From Candidatus Iainarchaeum sp. (GTDB lineage: Archaea > Iainarchaeota > Iainarchaeia > Iainarchaeales > JACQJH01): a stretch of 32,000 nt of DNA. Positions 2,806-16,781 of this stretch are shown here, piece after piece. The stretch is taken from the NCBI GenBank assembly GCA_016205145.1, contig JACQJH010000002.1, positions 240,001 to 272,000 of the forward strand, given 5' to 3'. The notes beneath the pieces are model-generated. The model was not told where the DNA came from. It made no database searches and worked only from the letters and a program-made list of their open reading frames with translations. The translations under genes and the position numbers were made by a program. Within the stretch, counting starts at the first letter, position 1, and each line of letters opens with the position of its first letter.

Positions 2806-5475
2806 TCAGCCCGGCTCGAAAACGCTGTCCTTGAACTTTTTGTCGATTTTTGCAAGGCAGTGCGGAACGTTCTTGCAGTCTTCCTCGCCGAACGTGACGG
2901 TGACAGATGCCATGTCAGTCCTCGGGCTCCCGTCGCTTGTGCTGCCGAACTGGCACGCAACGAACTTGTGCTGTTCATTGAGGCCCATTTCGGAAACAGG
3001 CCTGCCGTCAATGGAAAACACGGGCCAGAAATAAGCCGCAGTCCTGTTGCCGAGCGAAAATTCCGACAACCCTTCCCTTGAAAAAATCTGGGTCTTGCCG
3101 GTTGAAACCGCGCCGTTGTCGCCGGAAACTACAAATGATGCGTTCGAGAAAGTTATGGATTGCGTGGCAAACACTTCAACCTGCACCACTTCAGCTTCGG
3201 AGGAACTCGGAGTGGTTGCCGACGGAACCTGCTGCGTTGAACCTGCGGATGTGCCGGTTCCGCCGCCAACAATGCTTGCCTGCTGAGGCGCCTGGTTCCA
3301 GCCCTGCCTGACTCCCTGCACAAAAGACGAAACCGCGTTGACCGCACCGATTACAACGCCTTTGACTGCCGAGCCAAGCCATGCGCCAAATCTTCCGGTC
3401 GCCCTGCCGGCCGAGCCTGCGACATTTGAAACCGTGACATCCTGCTGCAGTCCTGCAACCAAAACCTTGGCCGGGCCGATGGCAACAGTGAATTTGGAAA
3501 CGCCGCCAAGCAATGCCTCACTGTAAGCCGGGCCTGCCAATGGCGCGGCATTCGCGGTCGCAAGAATGCCGGTGTCGGCGCCCGCCGCCGCAAAGTCCTT
3601 TTTCACGTTGTCCGCTTCATCGCCTGAAACGGTTTCAGTGAACAGATTAGGGTCCAGCCCGGTGTTCGAGGCATCGGGTTTCTTTTTCACAGTATCGTTG
3701 TTTTTCGCGTCAATCAAATACCTTGCAACCGCGGCCGGATTCTTGTAGTAATACGTGACATACTTGTAATCCACGCTGTCCGTCTTCTGCTCAGATGTTT
3801 TTATCTGGTCGATTTTTTTCTGCCCGTTCTCCTCGTAAGCCGATCCGTCTGCAAGGGCGCCGGAAACGTCTGCCGGGTGCGCATAGGAAATGGGCGTTTT
3901 TTTGTCGCCGGCAATTCTCAAAACCTGCCTGGGATAAACCGCGGTTATTTCATAAGCCGCATTTGCCGGGACGGCCGCGCCGCTTCCGCCAGCGCCCGTG
4001 CCTTCAGCTGTGCCGCCGGCGCTTGACGGCTCAACGCTTGAAATGTAGTCCTCGCGGATTTTCGAGCGGATGTCCGAGCAAATCTTCGTGGAATCCGCGG
4101 TTGCGTCGGCAACAGACAAATAAAGCTCCTTGTCGGTGTCGGCGCCGTCCAATTTCAAAAAGAATGGTGCAAGCGTTTCAAGCCTCGCATCCTTCCACTC
4201 CTTTGTGCCGGCAAGATTTCTTGCCCCGACCTTGAAGGAGTCCCCTGACTGGACTATGATCTGGTCAAAAACCAGGTTGCCGTTAAGCTGTGTCGGATAC
4301 TCTATCGTGCCTTCGGGGGTAAGCCTGAACGTCACAAAGCCCCATGGGTCGGCGTCATCATCCGACGGTATTACACTGCAATTGCTTGAACTCCACTTTG
4401 TTCCGGCACCGATTTTGCCTGCATCCATGCCAACACAATAAGTGTAAATGCCGGGCTGAGGCGCCTGAACGCTTGACATCCCATCGAAAATATTGCGGAT
4501 GTTCGCAGAACAGCCGTGCGTCACTGCAGTGCCATTTTTCAGGCCGGTTTCAATTTTGCCCCACAGCATCTGCTTCCAGTCGTTCGGCCCGAGATTCAGG
4601 AAAAAGCCCTCGCTTGCAATGACCGGCCTGGAAACGCCGTTGTCCGTCAAAACCCTTGCATCGGCATAGCCCTGGTAATCGTCCTTTATTATGTCCTGCT
4701 CGGAATCCGGCGTGAAAATCTTGTTCGCCCTTTCATCCTCCCTGAAGCAGGTGCTGCCGTCAATGCTGGGCTGGGCGGCGCGCCACAAAAAGATTTTTGC
4801 CGGAAGCTTTGCCTTTACCTCGCTTTCAAAGCCCGTTGAAGGCCTGACGGCAAAGGCAATCGTCCGCTGGTCCGCGCGCTTTGTCGCCCTGACGTCAATG
4901 ACATTGTGCCCAAACGGGGCGCCGGCGGCATCCCTCAATTCCGGGTCGAACTTTCCGGTAAAAACGCCCGGCGAAAACGCCCTCTTGCCTCCCGAACTAA
5001 CATCACAATAGCATACATCCGTTCCGGAGCAGGCCCAGCCGTAAGCCTTTTTCTCTTCCTTGCCCCAGACAACATTCCAGTTTTCGCCCGGCGAAGAGGA
5101 AGCGCATTTTGCATCCGTGCCCGAACCGTTCCAGGCACCGCATTGGCCGGAACAGGTCAGTTTTGGCGCGGGCGCAACCGAACGCGAAGAAGAACCGGAA
5201 GACCTTGAACCGCCGCGCTTTGTAACAGTCCTGGCAGAGCCGGAAGAATCAGGCTTCGGCGCAGGAGCCACGGCAGGAGAAGCCCCAGCAACGGTAAAAG
5301 CGGTGGGCGTTATATTCACTATTTGAACAGGGGCGGGGGGAGTTGTAGCACGCGGGATTGCGGATGGAGCCGGCGGTGCCTGTCCTTGGACAAAAATGAA
5401 AACCGCGGAAAATGCTGCGAGCGCAAGCAAAAGCGCCAAAAAGTGTTTTCGATTGAAGCCGGACAAACGCGACAT
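2806..5475 (-). CDS. Large secreted protein (889 aa), no family recognised
   Basis: Long ORF with an N-terminal hydrophobic signal/anchor (HFLALLLALAAFSAVFIFVQG), P/A/S-rich spacers and a Cys-rich stretch (CSGQCGAWNGSGTDAKC...CSGTDVCYC). An amphipathic Gly-rich hydrophobic segment (GRFGAWLGSAVKGVVIGAVNAV) follows. After an S/T/G linker, the C-terminal module (AAYFWPVF...FVACQFGSTSDGS) resembles the C-termini of the three L proteins upstream. Confidence 0.8.
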   Translation of the reverse strand: MSRLSGFNRKHFLALLLALAAFSAVFIFVQGQAPPAPSAIPRATTPPAPVQIVNITPTAFTVAGASPAVAPAPKPDSSGSARTVTKRGGSRSSGSSSRSVAPAPKLTCSGQCGAWNGSGTDAKCASSSPGENWNVVWGKEEKKAYGWACSGTDVCYCDVSSGGKRAFSPGVFTGKFDPELRDAAGAPFGHNVIDVRATKRADQRTIAFAVRPSTGFESEVKAKLPAKIFLWRAAQPSIDGSTCFREDERANKIFTPDSEQDIIKDDYQGYADARVLTDNGVSRPVIASEGFFLNLGPNDWKQMLWGKIETGLKNGTAVTHGCSANIRNIFDGMSSVQAPQPGIYTYCVGMDAGKIGAGTKWSSSNCSVIPSDDDADPWGFVTFRLTPEGTIEYPTQLNGNLVFDQIIVQSGDSFKVGARNLAGTKEWKDARLETLAPFFLKLDGADTDKELYLSVADATADSTKICSDIRSKIREDYISSVEPSSAGGTAEGTGAGGSGAAVPANAAYEITAVYPRQVLRIAGDKKTPISYAHPADVSGALADGSAYEENGQKKIDQIKTSEQKTDSVDYKYVTYYYKNPAAVARYLIDAKNNDTVKKKPDASNTGLDPNLFTETVSGDEADNVKKDFAAAGADTGILATANAAPLAGPAYSEALLGGVSKFTVAIGPAKVLVAGLQQDVTVSNVAGSAGRATGRFGAWLGSAVKGVVIGAVNAVSSFVQGVRQGWNQAPQQASIVGGGTGTSAGSTQQVPSATTPSSSEAEVVQVEVFATQSITFSNASFVVSGDNGAVSTGKTQIFSREGLSEFSLGNRTAAYFWPVFSIDGRPVSEMGLNEQHKFVACQFGSTSDGSPRTDMASVTVTFGEEDCKNVPHCLAKIDKKFKDSVFEPG

Positions 5476-5565
5476 TCCAACGCACTCCGCAAAAACCTTT
5501 CCACACCAAAGCCGATAAAAACCAAATTAACTGATTAATGCAATAAGACTATTAGCGATTTTCTG

Positions 5566-5573
5566 TATAAAAA
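5566..5573 (-). promoter_or_regulatory. Candidate archaeal TATA box (minus strand cATTTTTATAc) upstream of the 889 aa gene
   Basis: The reverse complement of 5561-5578 is aaacATTTTTATAcagaa. It lies in the 113 nt gap between 5589 and 5475. The same 9-mer ATTTTTATA recurs at 7389-7396 and 11474-11481. It sits 91 nt upstream of the ATG, implying a long leader. Confidence 0.35.
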
Positions 5574-5588
5574 TGTTTTCCCTGCAAA

Positions 5589-6758
5589 TCAAATCCATCC
5601 CGAAGACTTACCCTGGCATGATCCTGAAGTGCCGGACTTTGTGCACTCAAATGATACCCAGAACCCGCCACCGCCATCATATAATGTCTCCAACTCGAAA
5701 TAGCCGGTCCACGCCCTCGCACTGTAATACCTCCAAAAATATCCTTTAGGAAGCCCCGACGCAGTATACCGTGCAACAACCCCGCCTTGAAGCTCCGGCG
5801 TAAGACTGCCCGGATACTCGGCAACCTTGGTCCGCGCACGGGTTCCATTGGAATTCTGCACCAAAAAAAGCGTTGCCGACGTGATTGTTTTGCCCGGCGC
5901 CTCCAGGGAAGGCAAGAGAACCAGGAAAGAATTCGCGGGCGGCGCAGAAGGGGCAGGACCCGGCGAAGGAGAAGGGCCCGGAGCAGGACCGGGGGAAGGC
6001 GCTGGCGCGGTTCCGCCAAGACCGGCATCAACCATTGCTTTGGCCGCGCCGTCTTTGGTCCCATACCGGACATATTCAATGTTTGCAATCAAGGTTTCGC
6101 CAAGACCGGCAGTGCCGGCACGGTAATTTGCAGCCAAGATCCGAACGGTCAGGACAATGGTGTCATTCGGATAATCGGGGCTTATGAAACTGAAAGGCGC
6201 TGAACGCGTTGTCTGGACATATTTTGGGCCAGCACTGGTTGGATACGGAATCCTGCCGGTAACAGGGTCCATCTGCGCTTTCAACCGGCTTGCAATGACA
6301 CCCACATCATCGCCCATTTCAAGCCAGGCGAACCGTTCCATTGGCGCGTTAGAACCGGAAAGCGTTGGTGCAGGCGCCTGCTTGAAAGTAGTCAGTATGC
6401 GCGGGTCGCGGTAATGCGTGTCCAATCCCAAGTCGAAGCCTTTGACATTCACTTTCGGCGTCCAAGTCCCGTAAACGCCAATATCAATGCCGCCCTTTCC
6501 GCCATCGGGATGAGAACCAAGACAAAATGACAGGTAAAGCTCGCCATCATTGGCCTGGGGGGCGCCCCTATAGCGGTCGGCGCATCCGGGAAGTATTCCT
6601 GCAACCACGATTTGGCTTCGTTTGATTTCAGTTGTTTGGGCAAATGCGGCGGAAGCGAACAAAACAGTGGCGAAAACCAAAACCGCAATCTTTTTTGTTT
6701 GCCCGGCCATTCCACACACTTTGAAATTATTGTTGCTTGTTGTTTTATGCGTTTTCAT
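5589..6758 (-). CDS. Secreted protein L3 (389 aa), third copy of the L family (shares only the linker and C-terminal module)
   Basis: Signal peptide MAGQTKKIAVLVFATVLFASAAFAQT if translation starts at the ATG at 6710. The ATG at 6758 would overlap the upstream gene by 14 nt. Pro-rich linker APAPSPGPAPGPSPSPGPAPSAPP, then a C-terminal module PANSFLVLLPS...GYFWRYY...GFWVSFECTKSGTSGSCQ that aligns with L1 and L2. Confidence 0.8.
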   Translation of the reverse strand: MKTHKTTSNNNFKVCGMAGQTKKIAVLVFATVLFASAAFAQTTEIKRSQIVVAGILPGCADRYRGAPQANDGELYLSFCLGSHPDGGKGGIDIGVYGTWTPKVNVKGFDLGLDTHYRDPRILTTFKQAPAPTLSGSNAPMERFAWLEMGDDVGVIASRLKAQMDPVTGRIPYPTSAGPKYVQTTRSAPFSFISPDYPNDTIVLTVRILAANYRAGTAGLGETLIANIEYVRYGTKDGAAKAMVDAGLGGTAPAPSPGPAPGPSPSPGPAPSAPPANSFLVLLPSLEAPGKTITSATLFLVQNSNGTRARTKVAEYPGSLTPELQGGVVARYTASGLPKGYFWRYYSARAWTGYFELETLYDGGGGFWVSFECTKSGTSGSCQGKSSGWI

Positions 6759-7353
6759 CCGCGCACAATTCCTTCAAATCCGCGGCGTTTGCATGCACGA
6801 CAATGAAAGAATCCTCCGCATTTTCAACCAGGACAAAATCCGCGCCGAAAACCGTTTTTTTCGCCTCATCCGGAAACGACTTGTTGAATTCCGAAATTTT
6901 TTCCGAAAAGGTTTCGGCTTTGTCCAAAAAAACCGCGAACGCCAAGTCAAGTTCCACGAAATCCGAAAGCCTTCCGCAGGCGGAAACATCTTCCGGCTTT
7001 GAATCCATGAAAGCCTTCAGCACAGCCGCCTTTGCGCGCGCATCCTTTTTGGTTTCAAGATAGTCAACAAGCAGAAGGTTTAATTCCTTGAACTGCGCAA
7101 AGCCATTGCTGTTGCCGCTGGCCGCGGAAAGCTCGGCCCTCAAACCCGAAAACCGGTCGGGCAAAATGTTTTCCGCGGCTTCCGGCCCGGCCGGCGAAAC
7201 CTTTCCAATGTCAACGCCGTATTTGAGCCAGACGCCCTTGATTGCGTTGTAATCGCTTCCGGCATTCTGCACGAAAAAGACTGCAAGCAGGGCAAGCGCA
7301 ATCACAAGCAAAATTCCGGCCAAGAATATTTTGCGCAAGACAAAAACCTCCAA
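6745..7353 (-). CDS. Small signal-anchored protein S3 (202 aa), member of the S family
   Basis: One N-terminal TM helix (IFLAGILLVIALALLAVFFV). It aligns by eye with S1 and S2 at LRAELSAASGNSNGF, ACGRLSDFVELDLAFAVFLDKAETFSEKISEFNKSFP and C-terminal LKELCADEN. Both Cys positions are conserved. Confidence 0.8.
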   Translation of the reverse strand: MEVFVLRKIFLAGILLVIALALLAVFFVQNAGSDYNAIKGVWLKYGVDIGKVSPAGPEAAENILPDRFSGLRAELSAASGNSNGFAQFKELNLLLVDYLETKKDARAKAAVLKAFMDSKPEDVSACGRLSDFVELDLAFAVFLDKAETFSEKISEFNKSFPDEAKKTVFGADFVLVENAEDSFIVVHANAADLKELCADENA

Positions 7354-7388
7354 ACAAAATGCCAGTAAAAACTATTATTGAATTCCAA

Positions 7389-7396
7389 TATAAAAA
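7389..7396 (-). promoter_or_regulatory. Candidate archaeal TATA box (minus strand gATTTTTATAt) upstream of S3
   Basis: The reverse complement of 7385-7400 is cagATTTTTATAttgg. It lies in the 72 nt gap between L2 (ends 7426) and S3 (starts 7353), 36 nt upstream of the S3 ATG. Confidence 0.4.
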
Positions 7397-7425
7397 TCTG
7401 CCTTGAACGCCGGAAACGCCAAACA

Positions 7426-8895
7426 TCATTTTGCCGTGCCCGGCTTTGGCGAAGGCAGGCAGTCGCCGACCGGATTGCAGCCGCCGCGCTCGTTGCCGGA
7501 TGAAAAGCATTCGAAACTGCAGGCATAGCCTGAACCATCATCAAAAGTCGTGGCGACCGAAAATACTCCGGTGGACATTTCAGCGAGGTAATAGCGCCAA
7601 AAAATGCTCGTAACTTTTTTGTCGCGCTGCCTGTAGACGCCGCCGGCGGTGTCAAGCAGGCGCTCTGTGAGGCTTGAAAAATTCACAAGGCTTTCGCCCT
7701 GTTTTTTAAAAACCGCGACCGGCTCGACAATCGTCCTTCCTTGAGGTTCCGGAACAGGGAGGTAAATCAAAAAATTGGCCGGCACGGACGGGTGCCTTGT
7801 TGCTGCACCGCCGGCAGGCGGAGTCGTGGAAGAACCTCCAGATGGTGCCGGCGCAGTTCCGCCGCCGGGGGGAGCAGGCGCGGGAGCAGGCGTAGTGCCG
7901 CCATTGTTTTTCTCCGCTTCTTTCATTTCATCAAGAATCTTTTTCGCTTCAGCCGCTGCTTCGGGGGAAACTTCGCCGCAAGGCCATTGCCCTAAAAAAC
8001 TCGTTTTTGGGTCTATTTCAAGGTCGTCAAAGCTTATGCGCCCTGCCTTTCCCCTGCTCAGGTAAAGGTCCAATGTGACAATGCCATTGTACCTTGACTT
8101 GAACTTCAAAACATGGCTCTCATCGGCTTTTATGTTAACATTCCCCAGGCTGCCGCGTGAAACTATCGTGAAATTTATTTTGTTGCTTCCGGGAGTTTCA
8201 GGCAGCAATGTGGCATCATCCTTCCAAGACCTGCCGTCCGACTGCCTTGCTTCTGTGACAACGATTGTGGCGCTTCCGGAAGCGCCTTGCCTTGGAATGT
8301 TAAGGGTTCCTTTTTGGGTATGAATCCGGTAAATTGAGCTTATGCCCACAACGCTTGTTCCGCCGCCTGAAACGCCCGGGCACAAAACCAGATAGTCTTT
8401 TGTGTGAAGCACCGGCGCAGGCGTCGAACCCGTGGCGCCGACCGCGCGCAATCCAAGGTAAGCAAAAAAAGCATACACTCCGCCAACTGCGGTTATGCCT
8501 GCAAGTTTTACGCCAACAGGGATAAGCTTAGCCTTCCAAAGAAGCCTTATTGGTGCCCAGAACCATCGGGCCGTGCCGGCTATTGCCCTGCCTGCAAACC
8601 CTAAAGCTCCGCCCGCGGCTGTTTTGGCGGCAGCGCCCGCGCCGGCCGCGGTAACGCTGGCCGCTGGAAGCGCCCACCACAAAACCAATGCCAAAACAAT
8701 TGTCCCGATTATTCCGACGGTCCAGTTCCTGCCGGAATAATTCCTGATCCAGCCTTTCACGTTTTTCACGGTGTTCGGGCTTGAACCCTGCGTGTCGCCT
8801 TCAACGGTCGCAAAGGCGAAGTCCGCGGACAAAAGAATGAAAATCACGAACAGGCAGTAGAAAAAAGCCCTGCAAAAAAATTTTTTTGCTGCCAT
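7426..8895 (-). CDS. Secreted/membrane protein L2 (489 aa), L family
   Basis: Signal peptide ending FAFA-T, then a VKGW motif and a long Gly/Ala-rich hydrophobic region. The extracellular domain aligns with L1 at LCPG, YRI, NFTI, LKF, NGIVTL, ISFDDL and WPC. A P/G/A/T linker follows. C-terminal module PANFLIYLPVP...IFWRYY...YACSFECFSSGNERGGC. Its ATG directly abuts the S2 stop (TGAATG). Confidence 0.85.
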   Translation of the reverse strand: MAAKKFFCRAFFYCLFVIFILLSADFAFATVEGDTQGSSPNTVKNVKGWIRNYSGRNWTVGIIGTIVLALVLWWALPAASVTAAGAGAAAKTAAGGALGFAGRAIAGTARWFWAPIRLLWKAKLIPVGVKLAGITAVGGVYAFFAYLGLRAVGATGSTPAPVLHTKDYLVLCPGVSGGGTSVVGISSIYRIHTQKGTLNIPRQGASGSATIVVTEARQSDGRSWKDDATLLPETPGSNKINFTIVSRGSLGNVNIKADESHVLKFKSRYNGIVTLDLYLSRGKAGRISFDDLEIDPKTSFLGQWPCGEVSPEAAAEAKKILDEMKEAEKNNGGTTPAPAPAPPGGGTAPAPSGGSSTTPPAGGAATRHPSVPANFLIYLPVPEPQGRTIVEPVAVFKKQGESLVNFSSLTERLLDTAGGVYRQRDKKVTSIFWRYYLAEMSTGVFSVATTFDDGSGYACSFECFSSGNERGGCNPVGDCLPSPKPGTAK

Positions 8896-9516
8896 TCAGC
8901 CAGCCTCCGCAATGGCTTTTTCTTCCTCGCAACCGGCCTTCAGCCATGAAAGCATTTCTTCCAAATCCGAAACCCTCTGGCCGTCAACCGGCCACAAAAC
9001 ATCGCTGTTTGAAATGTTGCCAAGCCCGGAATAAACCGCAGGATAGTTTGATTCCAATGACACCATGCCCGCTTCAAGTTTTTGCGACGAGGACAGAGCG
9101 CTTTTTGCGTTTGAAACGGTTTGTTCAAGCAAAGGAATGCTGGGGCACAATTCCACGGACTCATAAGCGGAATCATATGCTGCTTCAAATTCCAGCGAAG
9201 ACGCGACAAACTTTCCAGTGTCCTGCCCCGCGTCAACCGCGCTTGCGGCAACCTTTGCCGCTTCTGCCCATCGGCCCCGGTTGGTTGACGCAAAACCCTC
9301 AAGCCTTTTTTTCAAGGCAGATGCTTCGGCATCATCCAAAAGCATTGCGGATTCCACAACCAAGCCTGATGCAGGGCTTACGCCAGCATCGGAAAGAATT
9401 GCCTGAAACTTCTGTTCCGCGGACATTGGCTTCGTTGGCGGCAGGAAAAAAAAGTATAATCCCAAAAGCAATGCTATGACCGCGATGCCAACCAAGGCTT
9501 TTACAAGAAAACCCAT
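8896..9516 (-). CDS. Small signal-anchored protein S2 (206 aa), S family
   Basis: N-terminal TM helix (LVGIAVIALLLGLYFFFL). Conserved blocks LKKRLEGFASTNRGRW, LCPSIPLLEQTVSNAKSALSSSQKLEAGMVSLESNYPAV and LKAGCEEE match S1 and S3. Confidence 0.85.
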   Translation of the reverse strand: MGFLVKALVGIAVIALLLGLYFFFLPPTKPMSAEQKFQAILSDAGVSPASGLVVESAMLLDDAEASALKKRLEGFASTNRGRWAEAAKVAASAVDAGQDTGKFVASSLEFEAAYDSAYESVELCPSIPLLEQTVSNAKSALSSSQKLEAGMVSLESNYPAVYSGLGNISNSDVLWPVDGQRVSDLEEMLSWLKAGCEEEKAIAEAG

Positions 9517-9528
9517 CTGCTCAGCCTA

Positions 9529-10791
9529 TTAATCTACCGCTTTCGAAAGAACGCCTTGAGTACGTGCCTGACAAGAAAGCGCGCCATCTGGGTTGGCACA
9601 ATTAAAGGTGGCACCGGAATAAACCGCGCCATTGGAATATAATGCCCCAAGCTTCCAGCCGCCCAGCGGCACTGACACAGTGTATTGATAGAATTTCTGG
9701 CCGCCAAACGTGAAAATCTTTGCCCTGCCGCTCGCATCAGTCCTCGCAAATTTGTCGGTCTCCACAATAGGCGTGTCATCCGAATTGCGAATCCTCAAAA
9801 CATCAACCGTTACACTGCCGCCTGGCGCAGGCACATAAACGTAAGCAGGGTAAATCGGTTGACCGCTAGTCTGCTGCAAGGCCGGCGCGGCGGGCGCTGG
9901 CGTGGAACCGCCGGACCCCGGTGCATTGCCTGCCGGCGGAGCAGAAGCCCCGGCATTCTGGGCTTTGGCAATTGCTGCCCCTGCCTGAGTCTTAAGCGCT
10001 TCAGAAATCGCAGAACACGGATTTTGCCCCGAAATTGTCGAACCCTGAGCCAAAAGGAGGTCATTCCAGCGTATCCCGCCTTTTGCCTGCGAAGCGTTCA
10101 GCACAATGGTTATTTCGCCGTTCAAATTAGAAACATATTTGAGAGTAGCCGGATTGTTTTTCAGATTGCTTATATATCCGTGCACGCCACCCCTTGATTC
10201 CGCCCACGTTGCAATGGTGAAGCTTACGGGTTGCGTTCCAATCGAAGTCCACCGCGCATCAGCACCCGCTTCCTGAACTTCAATATTCGCGGTAACTGGC
10301 GCATTTGTGTTGAACGTCCAATCACGATAAGAAGGCATGACCACTTGCCGGGCAATTATCTTATAGAATCCGGATTGGCCTTTCCCGTCTTCGGAAGGTG
10401 AAAAAGGGCAAATGTTTGCAAAGCCGTTTGCGACAAAGGCTTGGTCCCCCGTGGGCCTTGCACCATAACGATAACCCAAAAAACCCAAAGCGCCGACTAA
10501 ACCGGATCCAACAAGTCTGCCGATAACAGCCTTTGCGGTCAGTCCGGCTGCCCCTTTAGCAAGACCGCTTGCCAGCCAGCCGCCGGGAATAAAAACACCA
10601 ACAAGGACAGATACGCCAGTAACACCCCACGCAACGTACCTTTCACCCTGATTTATCGTCCAGCCCGTCACGTTTGCAGTGTGCGCGTTATCAGGGTAGG
10701 TCACGCCTTTTATCGTGGCAAACGCGTAGGAAGAACTCAACAGGATGAAAGCGGAAAAAAGGACCAAAAAGTTTGTGAAGCGCATTTTCAT
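9529..10791 (-). CDS. Secreted/membrane protein L1 (420 aa), L family
   Basis: Signal peptide ending YAFA-T, then a VTGW motif and a Gly-rich hydrophobic region (GWLASGLAKGAAGLTAKAVIGRLVGSGLVGALGFLGY). The domain is homologous to L2. Linker ASAPPAGNAPGSGGSTPAPAAP. C-terminal module PAYVYVPAP...KFYQYT...ATFNCANPDGALSC. Confidence 0.85.
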   Translation of the reverse strand: MKMRFTNFLVLFSAFILLSSSYAFATIKGVTYPDNAHTANVTGWTINQGERYVAWGVTGVSVLVGVFIPGGWLASGLAKGAAGLTAKAVIGRLVGSGLVGALGFLGYRYGARPTGDQAFVANGFANICPFSPSEDGKGQSGFYKIIARQVVMPSYRDWTFNTNAPVTANIEVQEAGADARWTSIGTQPVSFTIATWAESRGGVHGYISNLKNNPATLKYVSNLNGEITIVLNASQAKGGIRWNDLLLAQGSTISGQNPCSAISEALKTQAGAAIAKAQNAGASAPPAGNAPGSGGSTPAPAAPALQQTSGQPIYPAYVYVPAPGGSVTVDVLRIRNSDDTPIVETDKFARTDASGRAKIFTFGGQKFYQYTVSVPLGGWKLGALYSNGAVYSGATFNCANPDGALSCQARTQGVLSKAVD

Positions 10792-10815
10792 AATAATTCA
10801 CGTTGCATAGTTTTT

Positions 10816-11430
10816 TTATTCTTGATTGGCGTCAAAGTTAACTTCCGGGTTTTCGCAGTCGGCTTTGAGGCCCGCATTGAAAGTTTCGGATTCCGAAATC
10901 GTTTCCTGCGTCGGCGCAACAAGCCCGTCGCCCTCGGCCAAAATCTTCACTGAAGAAAGAACATTCGGATAATTCTTTTCAAGCGATTTTATTTTCGATT
11001 CAAAAACGGTTTTTGACTGCGCCAGCTTTTTTGAAACATCAACAAAGCTTTGCAACGAATCCATGCCGGGGCACAGGTCGGGCCAGTCCGACATTCCTGT
11101 AAAAAGCGCGGCGCGCCCGTTCGACGAATTGATGAAAACCGCGTAATTTTCTGAATAGTCCACCAAAGATGAAAGTGCGGAGCCCATTTCCTTCCATCCC
11201 CCGCTTTGCCCGGCCGAAAATTCTTCCAAATCAGCTTTCAATGCCAGGCGCTTTGAAGATTCAAGCACCATGGTTTTGTCGGCAAGGTAATCGGATTCCG
11301 CGTTTACGCCGTATTTGGCGTAAACCGATTTGAGTTCAGTGAAAGCGCCTGCAGGACCGGAAAAAAACAGCACGTATCCCGCGGCCAAAACCGCCAAGAC
11401 AACGATTGCAACCAAAAATTTGTTCGCCAT
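10816..11430 (-). CDS. Small signal-anchored protein S1 (about 204 aa), S family
   Basis: The track ORF is 10816..11472 and starts at a TTG. The in-frame ATG at 11430 (MANKFLVAIVVLAVLAAGYVLFF) gives a normal signal anchor and leaves room for the TATA-like box at 11474-11481. Conserved blocks LKADLEEFSAGQSGGW, LCPGMDSLQSFVDVSKKLAQSKTVFESKIKSLEKNYPNV and LKADCENPE. Confidence 0.8.
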   Translation of the reverse strand: MANKFLVAIVVLAVLAAGYVLFFSGPAGAFTELKSVYAKYGVNAESDYLADKTMVLESSKRLALKADLEEFSAGQSGGWKEMGSALSSLVDYSENYAVFINSSNGRAALFTGMSDWPDLCPGMDSLQSFVDVSKKLAQSKTVFESKIKSLEKNYPNVLSSVKILAEGDGLVAPTQETISESETFNAGLKADCENPEVNFDANQE

Positions 11431-11473
11431 TTTCCCGCCGTTTTGCTTTTCGTTAATTACATTGGTTTGCAAG

Positions 11474-11481
11474 TATAAAAA
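11474..11481 (-). promoter_or_regulatory. Candidate archaeal TATA box (minus strand tATTTTTATAc) upstream of S1
   Basis: The reverse complement of 11471-11486 is gaatATTTTTATActt. It lies 44 nt upstream of the ATG at 11430 and just downstream of the collagen-like gene stop (11493). Confidence 0.4.
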
Positions 11482-11492
11482 TATTCGTTTTT

Positions 11493-12368
11493 TCAGGGCA
11501 CGCGCCTTTGCATTCTAATCGGTTTTTTTTTGCCCCACAAGCCTTTCACTATTGCCTGCCTTCCGCGCACAGCCGAAACCCTTGGCGTCAAAACGGTCCT
11601 GCCGGCGGTGCGCACGGCGCCAGTAATTGCCCTTCCGGTTCCCCTTGCAAGCCTTCTTCCAAAACCCGGACCGGATGGCGCGGCTCTGACTGTTCCAGGC
11701 AAATCAACGTATCTTCCCCGGATTCCATTCATCCGCGCGTCAACTCCTGCAAGCGCCCGCCTGAAAGCTGACATGTGCTTTGGAGCGTAAGACCTTGGGC
11801 CTCTTTGTGCGATTCGTTCGCGTTGTGCGCGCAACGCATTGTAGGCTCTTGCATCCCTTGGACTCATTGTCAGGCCATGCTGCGTGCCAACGTAATGCGA
11901 GCCGGAAAACTGCCTTGCCGGATTCTCGGCCGCCTTGCCTTGCTCGCCGCGCTCGCCCTGCAGGCCTTGGGGACCGGGTTCGCCTTGCACGCCCTGCAAG
12001 CCCTGCAAACCTTGTTCACCACGCTCACCCTGCAGGCCAGGCAAGCCGCCACCGCCTCCACCGCCAGCAGGCGCAGGACCTGGAGCAGGACCACCACCAG
12101 CAGGAGGGCTTGACGCCGGAGCAGGCGGCATAACGGGTGGCACTGGTGCCGGAGCAGGAGGAACAGGAGTCGGAGTTGGCGCAGGCGCTGGCGTGCGCGC
12201 GGCCCGTGCAGCCAAGGCAGCTTGCCTTTTCTCACGCCAAACAGGCCTTCGCCCCTTAAGCCCAAAAACCGGGCCGACCGGCGTCTTGGACAAAGCCCAG
12301 TCAACCGGCGCGGTTACAACCTTGGCGCCAAGCTTAGCAGTTTTCCACACCGCACCAAGAATGCCCAA
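11493..12368 (-). CDS. Collagen-like repeat protein (291 aa) with a Pro-rich spacer and a basic Arg-rich C-terminal half
   Basis: ORF with a TTG start at 12368, preceded by GGTGG 6 nt upstream on the minus strand. It has an amphipathic N-terminus, a P/A/T/V-rich stretch and a G7 run. Thirteen uninterrupted G-X-Y triplets follow (GLPGLQGERGEQGLQGLQGVQGEPGPQGLQGERGEQGKA). It is co-directional with its neighbours. Confidence 0.75.
   Translation of the reverse strand: MGILGAVWKTAKLGAKVVTAPVDWALSKTPVGPVFGLKGRRPVWREKRQAALAARAARTPAPAPTPTPVPPAPAPVPPVMPPAPASSPPAGGGPAPGPAPAGGGGGGGLPGLQGERGEQGLQGLQGVQGEPGPQGLQGERGEQGKAAENPARQFSGSHYVGTQHGLTMSPRDARAYNALRAQRERIAQRGPRSYAPKHMSAFRRALAGVDARMNGIRGRYVDLPGTVRAAPSGPGFGRRLARGTGRAITGAVRTAGRTVLTPRVSAVRGRQAIVKGLWGKKKPIRMQRRVP
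11931..12047 (-). repeat. Collagen-like (G-X-Y)x13 coding repeat
   Basis: Residues 108-146 of the 291 aa ORF. The first codons were checked base by base (12045-47 ggc G, 12042-44 ttg L, 12039-41 cct P). The DNA shows recurring ctgcaggcc/ctgcaagcc units. Confidence 0.85.
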
Positions 12369-12404
12369 AAAAAACCACCAAACCTATTTTTGCTACACGG
12401 GCCT

Positions 12405-13580
12405 CTAGACGCCCCCACTATCTTGTTCGCGTTCCAGTTGAGCCTTTAATGTATCCCTGCGTTGCCGCAAATCTGCAAGCGCGGCTTTAGCAGCATCTAC
12501 GTTCGCAGGCAAAACAGACAACTGCTCATCCAAGCGCTGCTTAGTGCCCGGAATTGCCTCCAAAGCCTGTTGAGCCAGCTTATACCGGCGTGCACCCTCT
12601 TGCTTCCACTGTCCCGCCAAACGCACCCGTTCCTCCGGACTTGAAACCGCCCACTCCCACCGCTGCCTCAACCAACGCCCATCAGCAAACGCCAGTGCAG
12701 CCACTTGAGCACGATGCGCATCCGCCCCTCTCTGCAACAAGCCATCCGATTCACGCTTAACCCTTGCAAGAGTAGCCTCCAAATCCTGCAAAGCCCTATC
12801 AGCACCCGCAACAGCCCTGTCGGCTTCCCTTAACGGCGCCAATCGGTCGCGCTCAGCCCGGCCGGCCCGCACAGACGCAGTGGCACTTGCAACACCGCTT
12901 CTCGCGGCAGTCAGCAACTTGCGCGCAGGACCCTGTTCGCCTGCAGGCCTTTGCCTTCTGCTCTGGTCTTCCAATAATGGCGGTGGTGCAGGAGATTCGA
13001 TTCCAGCCCGCGCACTATGCTCTAGCAAGCCAAGCTGGCCGCCCAAAGCCACGACTCGTCGGCGCAATTGCAATAGTTGGTGTAACGATTCCGCGGGAAG
13101 CTCAGTCCGGGAAACATCCCGAAGCTGGCGTTCTAAATCTATAAGCGTAGTAATAGCCATTTGTAACTCAGAGCCTATTTGCTGGCGTTCCTCATTCCGG
13201 CGCTCCGATTCAAGCATCCGCCGGCCGCTTGAAGTAAGCCGCATAACAGCCACTTGACTGGAAGTGCGATTTGGAATGGGTTCCATTAGTGTCGGAGCAA
13301 TTTGCTCCCAAGCACTCATCACTTCCCAGGCACCGGCGCGTAGCTCGCGCACAGCAGCCAGCCTAGCATGCGCTTCAGCGGCACCAGACTCAGCGACATG
13401 CTCGACATGCGCTTCAGGCTCTCCCAAATCCTCGCCCCGAAGATTGGCGCGAGCCCACGCCGCTGCAACATCCGGATCCCAATGTTCAGTGAAACGCGGG
13501 TCGCTCACATGCTGCCTGCGCCTTCTTCCGCCTTGGCCCTTGCCAGGACCCCCGCCTTCACGCGGCGGTTCACTAGCCAT
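12405..13580 (-). CDS. Arg/Ala-rich coiled-coil protein (391 aa), paralog A
   Basis: No signal peptide. The C-terminal ~155 aa align clearly with the 288 aa neighbour (RDRLAPLREADRAVAGADRALQDLEATLARVK...GRWLRQRWEWAVSSPEERVRLAGQW vs RRRLAPLRAANRAVSGAEKTLQGLEATLKRAR...GHWLRQRWERLVSNPEEKARLAEQW). No family recognised. Confidence 0.8.
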   Translation of the reverse strand: MASEPPREGGGPGKGQGGRRRRQHVSDPRFTEHWDPDVAAAWARANLRGEDLGEPEAHVEHVAESGAAEAHARLAAVRELRAGAWEVMSAWEQIAPTLMEPIPNRTSSQVAVMRLTSSGRRMLESERRNEERQQIGSELQMAITTLIDLERQLRDVSRTELPAESLHQLLQLRRRVVALGGQLGLLEHSARAGIESPAPPPLLEDQSRRQRPAGEQGPARKLLTAARSGVASATASVRAGRAERDRLAPLREADRAVAGADRALQDLEATLARVKRESDGLLQRGADAHRAQVAALAFADGRWLRQRWEWAVSSPEERVRLAGQWKQEGARRYKLAQQALEAIPGTKQRLDEQLSVLPANVDAAKAALADLRQRRDTLKAQLEREQDSGGV

Positions 13581-13606
13581 CCCGGTTCACCAGCCGGATT
13601 AATTCA

Positions 13607-13630
13607 CTAGTCATCTTACTAGTCATCTTA
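13607..13630. repeat. Perfect tandem duplication of the 12-mer ctagtcatctta (x2) in the leader of paralog A
   Basis: 13607-13618 equals 13619-13630. A degenerate third copy (cactagccatcc, 13571-13582) overlaps the ATG of the 391 aa gene. Confidence 0.9.
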
Positions 13631-13653
13631 TCACATGATAAATGGTTTAATCT

Positions 13654-13668
13654 CCTATTTAATTCTTG
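13654..13668 (-). promoter_or_regulatory. 15 bp exact repeat cctatttaattcttg (minus strand caagaATTAAATAgg), TATA-like, upstream of paralog A
   Basis: Identical 15-mer at 14627-14641. On the minus strand it contains ATTAAATA preceded by a purine-rich, BRE-like aagaa. It lies 74-88 nt upstream of the ATG at 13580. Confidence 0.45.
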
Positions 13669-13708
13669 GCGTGAAAGCCAAAATTGGCAAGCCAAAACGA
13701 AAACGATT

Positions 13709-14575
13709 TCAGTTTCGTTCGCTGTCTTTGACTCCAAGCTCGGCGCGCAAAGTCTCTCTCTCGGACTGCGATTGTTCTAGCTTGGCCTGTGCCTCGGCTA
13801 TTTTCGAGGGCAGTTCATCCAATTGTGTTTCCAATCGCGCCCTAAGCCGCGGAATTTCAGCCAATTCCCGTTCGGCTAAAGCGTGGAGCCTTTCACCTTC
13901 GCGCATCCATTGCTCCGCCAAACGCGCCTTTTCCTCCGGATTTGAAACCAACCGTTCCCATCGCTGCCTGAGCCAGTGCCCATTCTTCCATGCCCGTGCC
14001 TTAACCAAGGCACGGTTCGCATTAGCCTCCCGTTGCGATAAACCATCAAATTCAAGCCGGGCTCTTTTGAGAGTAGCCTCCAAACCCTGCAAAGTTTTTT
14101 CAGCGCCTGAAACGGCCCTGTTGGCTGCCCTCAGCGGCGCCAATCGCCTGCGCTCAGCCAGCCTGCCTCTCACAAAAGTGCCAACACCTCGAATGCCGCG
14201 GCCTGTGCCGGCCAGGAGATCGCGGACGCCACGCTTGGGTGGCAATAAATTTAATCCCCTTGCCGTTCCATTGCGCGGGCGGCCCCTGCCTTGGCCCCTG
14301 CCAGGCGTCACACGCATGCCGGGTTCCTGATGCACACTAGAAAAATCCCCTGGCCCGGGAAAAACGGGTGGAATGTAAGGCGGTTGCCTTCTCCTTTCGC
14401 CCGGTAATGGTGCGGGTTCAAACCGGATAGGCGCCGTTGCGGGGTCCACGGCGCGCTGTCTGGGGCGCTGCCGGAAACCTGTTGCCGGACGGAAATCTGA
14501 TTCGCTTATCACGCCGTGGTCAACAAGCACTTGACCCAAAGTCTTCCTAGGCCTTTGGGGAGGAGTTTCAGCCAA
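13709..14575 (-). CDS. Arg-rich coiled-coil protein (288 aa), paralog B
   Basis: Pro/Arg/Gly-rich, probably disordered N-terminal half. The C-terminal coiled-coil domain is homologous to the 391 aa protein. No signal peptide. Confidence 0.8.
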   Translation of the reverse strand: MAETPPQRPRKTLGQVLVDHGVISESDFRPATGFRQRPRQRAVDPATAPIRFEPAPLPGERRRQPPYIPPVFPGPGDFSSVHQEPGMRVTPGRGQGRGRPRNGTARGLNLLPPKRGVRDLLAGTGRGIRGVGTFVRGRLAERRRLAPLRAANRAVSGAEKTLQGLEATLKRARLEFDGLSQREANANRALVKARAWKNGHWLRQRWERLVSNPEEKARLAEQWMREGERLHALAERELAEIPRLRARLETQLDELPSKIAEAQAKLEQSQSERETLRAELGVKDSERN

Positions 14576-14626: not shown

Positions 14627-14641
14627 CCTATTTAATTCTTG
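14627..14641 (-). promoter_or_regulatory. Second copy of the 15 bp repeat cctatttaattcttg, TATA-like, upstream of paralog B (may also serve the divergent + gene)
   Basis: Exact match to 13654-13668. It lies 52-66 nt upstream of the ATG at 14575 and 60-74 nt upstream of the + strand ATG at 14701. Confidence 0.45.
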
Positions 14642-14700
14642 TGTCGAAAAATTCCGTTTGTTTAAAAACCGTTTCATGGCAATTCTTTTCCGGGCTGGCA

Positions 14701-15528
14701 ATGGCGCGGATTGAAAAAAATGGCAACTCCTTTTCACTGAAATTGTCCGAAGCCGAGGCGAAAAGCCTCAATATTGCAGAAGGCAAAAACTTTTCCGTTG
14801 CCAAAGTGCGCGACGGCCTGTTTGTTTTCGAGGAAAGCGCGGGCGAAAAGGAAAAAAATGCTTTGCTGGCGGGCAGAGGGTTCGAGCAACAGCGAGAACC
14901 CTCAACGTCGGACCCGGCGGACGAAACCGCCGAAAAAAGCAATCCTTTCGCGGAGCAGGACCGGAAAATCTTTTCCCTGCTTGAAAGCCTGCCCGCAGCC
15001 GACATAGTGGAAGGGAAATTTGAAAAGCAATTGAACAAGGAAGAGCTGGAGCGCTTCCAGTCGCTTTTGAAAGGCGGCGGAATCGAAAGGTTCAAGTCCT
15101 CGCCCAAATATTTCAAGTTCTTGTACAGGCAGGCCGCAAAACCGGCCAAAAAAAAGGAAAGCGAAAATCCTGCCGCGGAGGAAAAGGCGATTGAAGAGTA
15201 TTCGCTTGAAAAGGACGGCTTTTTTGTCGCAAAAAACGAGGAGCGCGTGAAGAGAATTTCGCAGGAGTTCGAGGAAAAAATCAAGAATGGCGAAATCCGC
15301 GGCATGAAGTCGTTTGACGGAAACTATTACATTGTCGAGGACGCCCTGCTGCAGAAGCACAGGCAGAAGGTTTTGGACTGCCTGAAAGCGGAAAAGCAGG
15401 CGAGCGTCGAAACCGTTGCGCAAAAAACTTCCATAAGCAAGACGCTTGCGAAAATCTGCTGCGAGTTCCTGAAAGAGGACGGCGAAATAATGGAAAAGCG
15501 CAGGGACATGTACTCGTTCATCGAATGA
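14701..15528 (+). CDS. Lys/Glu-rich hypothetical protein with a possible AbrB/SpoVT-like N-terminus and a winged-helix-like C-terminus
   Basis: The track ORF 14641..15528 starts at GTG. The first ATG is at 14701 (MARIEKNGNSFSLKLSEAEAKSLNIAEGKNFSVAKVRDGLFVF). The C-terminus (SVETVAQKTSISKTLAKICCEFLKEDGEIMEKRRDMYSF) looks wHTH-like. Domain calls are by eye only. The antisense ORF 14628..15305 is low-complexity S/F-rich and was rejected. Confidence 0.7.
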   Translation: MARIEKNGNSFSLKLSEAEAKSLNIAEGKNFSVAKVRDGLFVFEESAGEKEKNALLAGRGFEQQREPSTSDPADETAEKSNPFAEQDRKIFSLLESLPAADIVEGKFEKQLNKEELERFQSLLKGGGIERFKSSPKYFKFLYRQAAKPAKKKESENPAAEEKAIEEYSLEKDGFFVAKNEERVKRISQEFEEKIKNGEIRGMKSFDGNYYIVEDALLQKHRQKVLDCLKAEKQASVETVAQKTSISKTLAKICCEFLKEDGEIMEKRRDMYSFIE

Positions 15529-15574: not shown

Positions 15575-16210
15575 TTGGCTTTCGGGCACACTCTTTTCAT
15601 GGAAGTCGAATTCAGGGGCAATGAAATCGTTTTCAACCGGCCGTTGTCTTATTTGGACAAACTTGTTCTCAGGTTCGTGAAAATACTCGAAAAATCAGGC
15701 ATAAGCCACGTGATAATTTCCGGCTACATTGCAATCCTTTTTGGCAGGAGCAGGAACACAGAAGATGTTGACCTGTTCATAGAGGAAACCGGTTTTGAAA
15801 AATTCTCCGCGTTGTGGTCGGAGCTTGAAAGGCAGGGCTTTGAATGCATCAACGCGTTTTCCGCGGAAAGCGCGTACAACGATTACCTGAAAGGGAAGCT
15901 TGCAATCAGGTTTGCGGAGAAAGGCGAAATCATCCCGAATTTTGAAATAAAATTTCCAAAAACAAGGCATAATGAATACTCTCTGAAAAACAAGCTGGTT
16001 GTCGTGCTGAACGGCGAAAAAATCAGCACTTCAGAATTGGAAATGCAGATAGCATTCAAGCTGAAGCTTGGAAGCCAGAAGGATTTCGAGGATGCAAGGC
16101 ACTTGTACAAATTGTTTAAAGAACAACTAAACACGGGTTTATTGCAGTTGCACATATCAGACCTTGGCGTTGAAAAAGAGGCTGAGAGGATACTATGGAA
16201 AAAGTACTGA
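15575..16210 (+). CDS. Nucleotidyltransferase-fold protein (MNT/pol-beta-like superfamily)
   Basis: SGYIAILFGRSRNTEDVDLFIE fits the G[SG]-x(9-12)-D-x-D minimal nucleotidyltransferase signature. The start is uncertain: TTG at 15575 or ATG at 15599. The stop overlaps the start of the next gene. Confidence 0.65.
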   Translation: MAFGHTLFMEVEFRGNEIVFNRPLSYLDKLVLRFVKILEKSGISHVIISGYIAILFGRSRNTEDVDLFIEETGFEKFSALWSELERQGFECINAFSAESAYNDYLKGKLAIRFAEKGEIIPNFEIKFPKTRHNEYSLKNKLVVVLNGEKISTSELEMQIAFKLKLGSQKDFEDARHLYKLFKEQLNTGLLQLHISDLGVEKEAERILWKKY

Positions 16211-16377
16211 AGCTCACAAAAGATGAGCTGAAAGAGCTTGAAGAGGAAAAAAAGCGCAACTTCGAGCAGAGAATGCAGTTTATAGACCTGTACGTGGAAT
16301 GGCTCAAAAAAAAGCCGAACAAGGCCTGGGCGAAAGGCCAGAACAGGCTTTTGAGCAGGGCAAAGGCTGAAACATGA
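16195..16377 (+). CDS. Small charged helical protein (60 aa), hypothetical
   Basis: Its ATG at 16195 overlaps the end of the upstream gene, and its stop overlaps the next start in an ATGA. This is a translational-coupling geometry. The sequence is K/E-rich and probably coiled-coil. Confidence 0.55.
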   Translation: MEKVLKLTKDELKELEEEKKRNFEQRMQFIDLYVEWLKKKPNKAWAKGQNRLLSRAKAET

Positions 16378-16781
16378 AAGACGTGAAAGTGCTCATTCCC
16401 TTGCTGTCAAAACTGGAAAACAATCAGGCTTTCCTTGACAGGGCATGCGAAGGCGCAAAGGAAATAATCGTTCTGGCGGTAATCGACCGCAGTCTGATGG
16501 TGGGGCAATTCGGTTTCTGCGCTTCGGAAATGATGGCCGCCAATGACGTCATGGAGGAAATGAGGAAAGCGATCGGCCAGAAGCGCAAAACGTGCAACGA
16601 CATAGTCGAATGGGGCGACACGCTCCAGAAAACCGTGAACATCGCAAAAATCCATTCGGCCGACAAAATCTTTCTCGCACGGCAGGACAACAGGTATTTT
16701 GAGGAAATCGCAGGCGGCCTGGAAAGGGAACTGGGAAAGAAAAAAATCGAAATAGTTGAAATCGCGGCGCCGCAAGCGTAA
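16374..16781 (+). CDS. Hypothetical protein, possibly with a USP-like/adenine-nucleotide alpha-hydrolase-like fold
   Basis: 135 aa. The beta-alpha pattern MKDVKVLIPL...AKEIIVLAVID...ADKIFLAR resembles universal stress proteins, but I do not see the G-x2-G-x9-G(S/T) ATP motif. ATGA overlap with the preceding gene. Confidence 0.55.
   Translation: MKDVKVLIPLLSKLENNQAFLDRACEGAKEIIVLAVIDRSLMVGQFGFCASEMMAANDVMEEMRKAIGQKRKTCNDIVEWGDTLQKTVNIAKIHSADKIFLARQDNRYFEEIAGGLERELGKKKIEIVEIAAPQA

Follow-up and report, generated by a model that had tools for sequence, protein, structure and literature searches.

In Sulfolobales, the adjacent slaA and slaB genes encode the two proteins of the surface layer (S-layer). 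SlaB is a membrane-anchored alpha-helical stalk, and SlaA is a larger beta-rich protein exported by the Sec pathway (PMC6911244, PMC10903991). SlaB comprises a Sec signal, two to three beta-sandwich domains, a coiled coil of about 100 residues and a single transmembrane (TM) helix, and both proteins are about 24-25% identical between S. acidocaldarius and S. islandicus (PMC6911244). SlaA is large (about 120 kDa), soluble, beta-rich and exported, and forms a lattice with SlaB. The LemA proteins (PF04011) are small and consist of an N-terminal TM helix and a helical bundle; their genes often lie upstream of a gene for a larger membrane or secreted protein. Here we analyze a 32,000-nucleotide (nt) stretch (positions 240,001 to 272,000 of contig JACQJH010000002.1, assembly GCA_016205145.1), hereafter the window, in which a pair of genes for a small tethered protein (S) and a larger exported protein (L) occurs three times in tandem. 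The pairs were noticed earlier by a model that had the sequence alone and proposed that S and L work together. The observation is real, and this interpretation is partly supported.

The window belongs to a groundwater metagenome-assembled genome of Candidatus Diapherotrites (now Iainarchaeota, DPANN/Nanobdellati), in a contig of 637 kb; the sequence-only reading had correctly placed the organism among archaea of the DPANN episymbiont type. All six predicted open reading frames (ORFs) are present exactly at the coordinates it gave. They lie within 5589-11472 on the minus strand in the order S1-L1-S2-L2-S3-L3, and S1 and L2 are identical to the NCBI proteins HY394_04485 and HY394_04470, respectively. 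Lengths below are in amino acids (aa); HMM stands for hidden Markov model.

10816-11430, minus strand: S1, 204 aa; TM helix at aa 2-23, predicted all-helical acidic ectodomain, Cys120 and Cys192.
9529-10791, minus strand: L1, 420 aa; signal peptide at aa 1-25 (AFA/T), hydrophobic hairpin at aa 52-106, central beta domain, Ala/Pro/Gly/Ser linker at aa 264-310, and C-terminal beta domain with a Cys pair at aa 311-420 (window 9532-9861).
8896-9516, minus strand: S2, 206 aa; Cys124 and Cys196; matches the S-family HMM.
7426-8895, minus strand: L2, 489 aa; paralog of L1 with a longer hydrophobic region at aa 57-149 and a C-terminal domain at aa 373-489 (window 7429-7779); ortholog P0004.
6745-7353, minus strand: S3, starting at TTG 7353 or TTG 7338; Cys126 and Cys197; matches the S-family HMM.
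5589-6758, minus strand: L3, 389 aa; signal peptide (AFA/Q), distinct N-terminal domain, Pro-rich linker, and C-terminal domain homologous to that of L2 at aa 277-389 (window 5592-5930).

We tentatively propose, with a probability of about 0.42, that each pair is a two-gene surface module specific to the Iainarchaeota lineage, in which S, a conserved helical stalk tethered to the membrane, is co-produced with a Sec-exported partner that varies, and retains or escorts this partner at the cell surface. S would be a type-II membrane protein. Its short positively charged N-terminus would stay inside, one TM helix would span the membrane, and the outer part, an acidic bundle of helices with about 170 residues, would have two long antiparallel helices as its core and probably a disulfide linking two conserved cysteines. 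The downstream gene would encode a Sec-exported protein transcribed with S and often translationally coupled to it through abutting or overlapping stop and start codons. The stalk would bind this co-made partner and so keep or escort it at the surface, the partner being the variable, outward-facing part. In the window, the three pairs would form two transcription units, S1-L1-S2-L2 and S3-L3, followed by the gene of a giant secreted protein. The L partners would be beta-rich, with a common C-terminal beta domain that contains a disulfide and follows a Pro/Ala-rich linker; L1 and L2 would have a membrane hairpin of their own in addition. By analogy of parts, the closest functional counterpart may be the SlaB stalk with its SlaA canopy, since both systems combine a helical membrane stalk with a larger, beta-rich, exported and fast-diverging partner. 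The S-layer lattice is formed by one such pair, whereas in the window and its relatives a genome has several pairs that have diverged from each other, and some S genes stand alone.

The S proteins form a family of their own. An exhaustive HMMER search of 1.84 billion representatives with a profile made from four sequences gave 43 proteins at E<=1e-3, namely four from the lineage of the window, one spurious repeat protein (P0011) and about 38 others. Apart from P0011, the family matches are end-to-end, about 170-230 aa long and nearly all full-length. All matches with a named source come from Ca. Diapherotrites or Iainarchaeum and thus speak against a family detectable throughout DPANN; by description only, S also resembles the DPANN S-layer-like proteins, which are likewise DPANN-restricted, uncharacterized, alpha-helical or secreted and found partly in a housekeeping context. 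Word-indexed searches found only the orthologs in one second species, described below. In an alignment of 44 family sequences (A8), Cys120 is invariant, and Pro155 of a YP motif and Cys192 are conserved in at least 90%, which agrees with the two cysteines that had been taken as common to the S proteins. S1-S3 show all hallmarks of the family: the N-terminal tether, the Cys pair about 72 residues apart and the F-x3-YP motif. They match the HMM of alignment A8 with E-values of 4e-45, 4e-41 and 1e-38, which are not independent because all three are training members; two genes outside the training set match it with E-values of 4e-22 (8369-8989 in locus L012) and 4e-14 (8688-9332 in locus L011).

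Neither S nor L matched Pfam, NCBIfam or PHROGs, nor did their neighbors, apart from collagen-repeat matches of the 291-aa protein described below, and the 44 S members had no consistent match, and none to LemA, in Pfam (hmmscan, E<=0.01) and NCBIfam. The statement that none of the six proteins can be assigned to a known family is therefore correct for the curated libraries, which match none of S1-S3 and L1-L3; for S it holds no further, since S belongs to a detectable uncurated family. Judged by its sequences, this family is real, phylum-restricted and previously undescribed.

The predicted topology of S1-S3 is uniform and includes, as had been supposed, one N-terminal TM helix per protein: a short basic N-terminus is followed by the helix within aa 1-30 and by an acidic ectodomain with a net charge of -10 to -15 (mean net charge of the S ectodomain, -14). 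In one family member, P0015 (8001-8663 in locus L007), a lipobox-type signal (...VIFSGC) replaces the TM helix, and the protein has a long acidic C-terminal tail. This exchange of one anchor for another suggests that membrane tethering is a conserved property of the family. The AlphaFold model of S1 is confident and all-helical (predicted local distance difference test score, pLDDT, 84.9; predicted template modeling score 0.74), although it was built, like that of L1, from a shallow multiple alignment (four and five rows, respectively). It consists of the TM helix, short helices, two long antiparallel helices (residues 77-111 and 116-153, of 35 and 38 residues) and a C-terminal helix (175-201). 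Cys120 lies just after the hairpin turn and Cys192 at the end of the last helix, and the directions of the helices put both at the same end of the bundle, so that in the model a Cys120-Cys192 disulfide is plausible.

This fold has no close neighbor among those searched. The best Foldseek E-values for the S1 model were 0.46 in the PDB and 0.86 in BFVD, all matches being generic helical bundles, and profile searches of the PDB with S and L yielded only linker or coiled-coil noise. With about 200 aa, an all-alpha fold, an N-terminal anchor, no beta-sandwich and no sequence or fold match to SlaB in the PDB, S does not fit the description of SlaB. LemA is similar to S in its length of about 190 aa, single N-terminal TM helix, helical bundle and larger operonic partner, and differs in lacking the conserved Cys pair and YP motif, which are specific to S. 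We rejected LemA because the 44 members have no PF04011 match and no LemA structure is among the Foldseek and PDB-profile matches listed. A type IV pilin with a class III signal peptide was also rejected: the [KRDE][GA] motif occurs in 7 of 44 S N-termini, S1 not included, and no pilus-assembly genes (ATPase, TadC) are among the Pfam-scanned ORFs of the window. Phage i-spanins of the Rz type share with S the type-II topology, an extended helical extracytoplasmic domain and conserved cysteines. S has no similarity to PHROGs or BFVD entries and no lysis genes around it, and it is chromosomal and syntenic across the phylum, so we do not regard it as an i-spanin; an archaeal host has no outer membrane for a spanin to span.

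The L proteins are less uniform. In L1 and L2, the signal peptide (AFA/T) is followed first by a conserved segment of some 25 residues and then by a Gly/Ala-rich, two-segment hydrophobic region, which is absent from L3. Their C-terminal beta domain is about 110 residues long and contains a Cys pair. The L1 model is poor overall (pLDDT 48), with pLDDT 70-83 in the C-terminal domain, and fold searches with L are uninformative for this reason. L1-L3 do not correspond to SlaA, being only 389-489 aa long and without a sequence or fold match in the PDB, though the latter is to be read with the poor L1 model in mind. Sequons number 0.2-1.0 per 100 aa and give no sign of heavy glycosylation. Comparison of the S and L profiles showed no relation between them. 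By its sequence distribution the L family is confined to the lineage of the window and is not general.

The three pairs are paralogous. S1 is 30% identical to S2 over 192 aa (BLASTP, E 6e-16) and 25% identical to S3 over 150 aa (E 1e-4); the direct S2-S3 comparison is not significant, and both proteins match the S-family HMM. L1 and L2 are homologous over their full length, as had been claimed, with 43% identity in the N-terminus (E 2e-8) and 22% in the remainder (E 1e-5). L3 retains only the C-terminal part, again in agreement with the earlier description: it matches L2 in the C-terminal domain only (E 3e-5; E 6e-10 when the L3 of the second species is used), and L1-L3 is not significant. The homology expected among all modules is thus significant in four of the pairwise BLASTP comparisons (S1-S2, S1-S3, L1-L2, L2-L3) and not in S2-S3 and L1-L3.

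The whole block is present in a second species (species B), represented by loci L001-L003 (JGI 3300004210, ENA ERZ27293400 and Logan SRR6240789), which we count as one species since their proteins are identical. L001 spans a partial collagen-like gene, S1-L1-S2-L2-S3-L3 and the 5' part of the gene for the giant secreted protein, and L002 has the coiled-coil and collagen-like genes upstream of S1. The six orthologs are 41-71% identical, with unchanged gene order and conserved Cys positions. Identity and the ratio of non-synonymous to synonymous substitution rates (dN/dS) are 71% and 0.14 for S1, 53% and 0.31 for L1, 49-54% and 0.31 for L2 (P0004), and 58% and 0.18 for L3; S2 is 41% identical. 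Where dS could be estimated (not for S2), dN/dS is 0.14-0.31, with dS saturated at values above 1. These substitution patterns indicate that the six genes are under purifying selection and are kept by it. Since species B has the whole block, diverged under purifying selection, the triplication predates the split of the two species. The duplications are old, because the modules no longer resemble each other at the DNA level, apart from short matches in the Pro/Ala linkers.

In a rough neighbor-joining tree of S with long branches, S1 and S2 are sisters and adjoin a solitary S, and S3 falls together with the S gene of L007, a syntenic locus that has a single cassette. From this grouping, S3-L3 and the giant gene look like the ancestral cassette, to which a duplicated pair, S1-L1 and S2-L2, was added, although the support of the tree is weak. 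The histories of S and L agree, in that S1 and S2 are closest, L1 and L2 are closest, and S3 and L3 are outliers. The scheme of two duplications of one unit is therefore too simple, given that S3 groups with the S of L007 and L3 shares only its C-terminal domain with L2.

Independent support for a partnership comes from other genomes, too. We surveyed 13 S genes in nine loci, all outside the lineage of the window. Ten are directly followed on the same strand by a gene for a large signal-peptide protein without a curated family (399-1247+ aa, one of them cut at 160 aa by a contig end). The partner start overlaps the end of S in seven of the ten (-4 to -35 nt) and lies 5 to 60 nt downstream in the other three. 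The product of the gene after S has an N-terminal hydrophobic signal in 10 of 13 cases, and 19 of 115 background genes of the same loci encode one (Fisher p 1.6e-5); when only large proteins with a signal are counted, the figures are 10 of 13 and 3 of 115 (p 3e-10). These p-values are optimistic because the loci are partly syntenic relatives and not fully independent. S is thus not randomly placed with respect to genes of exported proteins. Tandems of the S-L-S-L type occur in L011, in L012, in L008 (Ca. Iainarchaeum) and in L015, which is orthologous to L008. Neither of the second S genes in L011 and L012 was part of the HMM training set, and the HMM recovered both; L015 is the one new locus that genome and metagenome collections yielded beside already known contigs. 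The partners in L008 and L015 are orthologs (33% identity over 740 aa), so here, as in species B, cognate pairs are retained from one species to another.

The partners from other genomes are homologous neither to each other nor to L1-L3 (BLASTP, L HMM), which makes S the conserved element and the partner the variable one. Their signal peptides end in AxA/xFA-type signal-peptidase sites. Domain hints in them are mostly sub-threshold beta-sandwich or Ig matches; the only match above the Pfam cutoff is a GXGXG domain in the 872-aa partner in L012. In the partners outside the lineage, and in L3, the signal peptide is the sole hydrophobic segment, and such proteins would therefore be released if they had no tether. 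The second S partner of L008 (6679-7947) contains tandem Cys-rich repeats of about 45 residues, PKTC[AS]E[ML]GW[EQ]CG[ST]G...C...C..G..C......HKC, which have no Pfam match and may be another undescribed extracellular repeat.

The view of S and L as a functional pair thus gains support from the conservation of the block in species B, from the exported partner of 10 of 13 S genes and from tandems in at least three lineages; what recurs in other archaeal genomes is S followed by an exported protein, and not L itself as a general family. S and its partners may bind each other physically, be displayed at the surface and act in contact with a host or the environment.

Several observations weigh against a tethering stalk. 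L1 and L2 have membrane segments of their own and hence no need of an anchor. As the partners are non-homologous, one S fold would need to recognize either very different proteins or only a feature shared by them. Three of the 13 S genes (in L005, L010 and L006) have no direct downstream partner; in L006 a gene for a 204-aa secreted protein lies immediately upstream. The S gene of L005 sits between a tRNA synthetase and a RIO kinase, and that of L010 is also beside housekeeping genes, so S may act independently of a partner. Acidic S and basic L are found in all pairs of the window and species B, but the pattern fails in other genomes, and we rejected electrostatic complementarity as general evidence. 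The partial dependence of the surveyed loci and the roughness of the S tree weaken the case further.

The same adjacency and the same stop/start overlaps would also fit an extracytoplasmic escort or chaperone (a foldase, an intermolecular pro-domain or an inhibitor) that acts only briefly on the partner, while it is being exported by Sec or soon after, and is not a stable anchor. A tethered helical bundle just outside the membrane is in a suitable working place, one fold with unrelated clients suits a generic chaperone better than a specific receptor, and L1 and L2 are already membrane-embedded themselves. However, S resembles no known foldase or chaperone family or fold; one copy of a generic chaperone per genome should do, but here every partner is matched by a separate, diverged S; and cognate pairs stay together across species. 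We consider this explanation unlikely, though worth keeping in view.

Solitary S genes raise the question whether there is a partnership at all. S could be a housekeeping-like envelope protein beside which genes of fast-evolving secreted proteins accumulate and duplicate in a variable island. The positions of solitary S genes in L005 and L010, next to ribosomal, aminoacyl-tRNA synthetase or RIO-kinase genes, would fit this, as would the S gene of L009, which lies directly after a ribosomal protein S2 cluster. The islands also contain unrelated secreted giants (889 aa in the window, 1297 aa in L007, and proteins of 335 and 521 aa in L013) and, in the window, another pair of tandem paralogs, the coiled-coil proteins described below; the partners, moreover, are non-homologous. 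Such an island does not predict one S per partner, whereas four lineages show a strict S-L-S-L(-S-L) alternation in place of one S with a run of L genes, 7 of 10 partner starts overlap the stop of S, and each S diverges along with its neighbor. Accumulation without partnership is quite unlikely in our estimation, and we retain the two-gene surface module as the preferred reading.

The intergenic distances in the window are +24 nt for S1/L1, +12 for L1/S2, 0 for S2/L2 (abutting in TGAATG), +72 for L2/S3 and -14 for S3/L3. The operon-like spacing reported before, including the 24-nt gap and TGAATG, is confirmed, and S3/L3 adds an overlap of 14 nt. The following elements were found at or between the genes.

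11473-11482, minus strand: TATA-box-like element ATTTTTATAC, exact motif, 43 nt upstream of the S1 ATG.
10792-10815, minus strand: S1/L1 spacer, within a 29-nt stretch identical in both species.
7388-7397, minus strand: TATA-box-like element ATTTTTATAT in the 72-nt L2/S3 gap; species B has an equivalent motif.
5565-5574, minus strand: TATA-box-like element ATTTTTATAC between L3 and the 889-aa gene that follows it; identical in species B.

At the site equivalent to the first of these, species B has the near-identical ATTTTTATAG, and the sequence downstream is conserved. TATA-like boxes, ATTTTTATAC or a one-base variant, therefore precede S1, S3 and the 889-aa gene in both species. By comparison with the archaeal promoter consensus they may serve as promoters, the element at 7388-7397 being a probable internal promoter for S3-L3, and their conservation suggests three transcription units, S1-L1-S2-L2, S3-L3 and the 889-aa gene.

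The S1/L1 junction is unusually conserved. The end of S1, the spacer and the start of L1 (10786-10841) are 85-95% identical to species B at the nucleotide level, against a background of 45-70%. The 29 nt preceding the L1 ATG hold a six-codon mini-ORF (ATG CAA CGT GAA TTA TTA TGA) whose stop overlaps the L1 start and which could be a translational-coupling or regulatory element. A wider conserved RNA element was rejected, as codons 1-50 of L1 are identical in 27 of 38 cases, modestly above the S1 average (77 of 140); the 29-nt spacer is the only part that this comparison of synonymous-codon conservation leaves unexplained. Some start codons may be refined. S1 starts at ATG 11430, as originally taken, since TTG 11472 abuts the TATA-like box at 11473-11482. 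For S3, TTG 7338 is more likely than TTG 7353 and matches the NCBI model P0006 (197 aa). For L3, sequence comparison makes Met17 (ATG 6710, giving 373 aa) the more likely start, because Met17 is kept in both species and residues 8-16 are not.

The pairs lie in a larger island of same-strand genes.

2806-5475, minus strand: ORF of an 889-aa secreted Cys-rich protein without a recognized family, which ends the block.
11493-14575, minus strand: upstream same-strand context of three genes without signal peptides (library scans, BLASTP).
11493-12368, minus strand: collagen-like protein of 291 aa with a GXY repeat tract, basic termini and no signal peptide.
12405-13580 and 13709-14575, minus strand: paralogous coiled-coil proteins of 391 and 288 aa without signal peptides.

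The 889-aa gene is 71% identical to species B over the part available there. Its positional counterpart in the syntenic locus L007 encodes a 1297-aa protein (10021-13914), also without a family; that locus consists of a single S, a 443-aa protein and this giant. Within the 889-aa gene, the region 5014-5163 (aa ~105-155) encodes a Cys-rich motif, KLTCSGQC...WACSGTDVCYCD, with 90-93% nucleotide identity between the two species. The same codon is used for 40 of 53 conserved residues of this motif, compared with 24 of 54 in aa 1-99; strong constraint and recent exchange are both candidate explanations.

The collagen-like gene is directly upstream of S1 in species B too. The two coiled-coil proteins are 50% identical over 164 aa (E 4e-43) and represent a second tandem duplication within the same island; the G+C content peaks at 0.61 there. 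Divergent from the island are two unannotated plus-strand genes (14641-15528 and 16374-16781), whose products of 295 and 135 aa look, when compared by eye, like the L007 proteins of 240 and 137 aa; the two genes seem to mark a conserved boundary of the island. Elsewhere in the window, a Pfam scan found cellular genes for a class-V aminotransferase, a Trp/Tyr-type tRNA synthetase and a methyltransferase, as well as GT4 glycosyltransferases, asparagine synthase, Wzy and a sugar transferase; a scan of the window for tRNA and Rfam families had zero matches. The window shares with L007, L008, L011 and L012 a set of neighbors (Trp/Tyr-type tRNA synthetase, Pyr_redox, DEAD_2 helicase and the 240- and 137-aa proteins), so the cassette holds a conserved chromosomal position.

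Genes of the toxin-antitoxin type repeatedly flank S cassettes across genomes (ParE/RHH, PIN/RHH, HEPN/nucleotidyltransferase and DUF2204 nucleotidyltransferase), at 4363-4865 and 13993-14659 in L007, 4451-4887 in L011, 2196-2705 and 9729-10603 in L013, and 15575-16210 in the window.

Could a virus or mobile element carry the module as cargo, or could the module be a conflict system, such as a toxin-immunity pair or a lysis cassette whose small protein is of the spanin or holin kind? The collagen-like neighbor does match phage tail-fiber PHROGs, along with collagen-like adhesin models, via its GXY repeats only. ParE/RHH and PIN toxin-antitoxin genes are near the S clusters of L007, L011 and L013, the G+C content in 2.8-14.5 kb is somewhat above that further along the window, and a TM helix with a Cys-containing helical domain recalls phage i-spanins in outline. 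Yet S1 and L1 have no relatives in the IMG/VR viral contigs, S and L have no match in PHROGs, PADLOC or BFVD, integrase, capsid, terminase and tRNA genes are all missing from the window, and the synteny beside TrpRS/TyrRS, Pyr_redox and DEAD_2 helicase is chromosomal and conserved across genomes. In a toxin-immunity pair the small protein is expected to vary with the toxin, but here S is the conserved member. Such an origin is very improbable. A viral structural or lysis module was rejected by the PHROG and IMG/VR searches of S and L and by the lack of a BFVD fold neighbor for S1. Known anti-phage defense and polymorphic toxins were rejected as well, since S and L have neither a PADLOC match nor a Pfam toxin or immunity domain; PADLOC also gave nothing for the 889-aa and collagen-like proteins and only a generic coiled-coil JetC match for the 288-aa protein.

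A broader form of the two-gene surface module can be envisaged, in which S is a universal docking stalk of Iainarchaeota that displays interchangeable, fast-evolving exported proteins, one S per cargo. We hold this generalization to be doubtful.

DPANN archaea are abundant, mostly uncultured and dependent on contact with other cells or surfaces, and their surface machinery is almost wholly annotated as 'hypothetical protein'. Six anonymous ORFs, distinguished in the window by the threefold iteration of the pair, have now led to a definable S family with a confident structural model and no known fold neighbor. The rule of S followed by a co-translated exported protein flags a fast-evolving surface repertoire in any Iainarchaeota genome, and concrete cognate S-L pairs are now named for binding tests. 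If S does not tether its neighbors, it is still a phylum-specific family of envelope proteins worth naming. If it does, the pairs would represent a principle of surface display made from parts unrelated to known S-layer, sortase and pilin systems. Should S prove to be a docking stalk, it would define a modular two-component surface architecture unrelated to known S-layers, sortases and pili, and the partner repertoire would be the variable interface of the organism with hosts, viruses or minerals.

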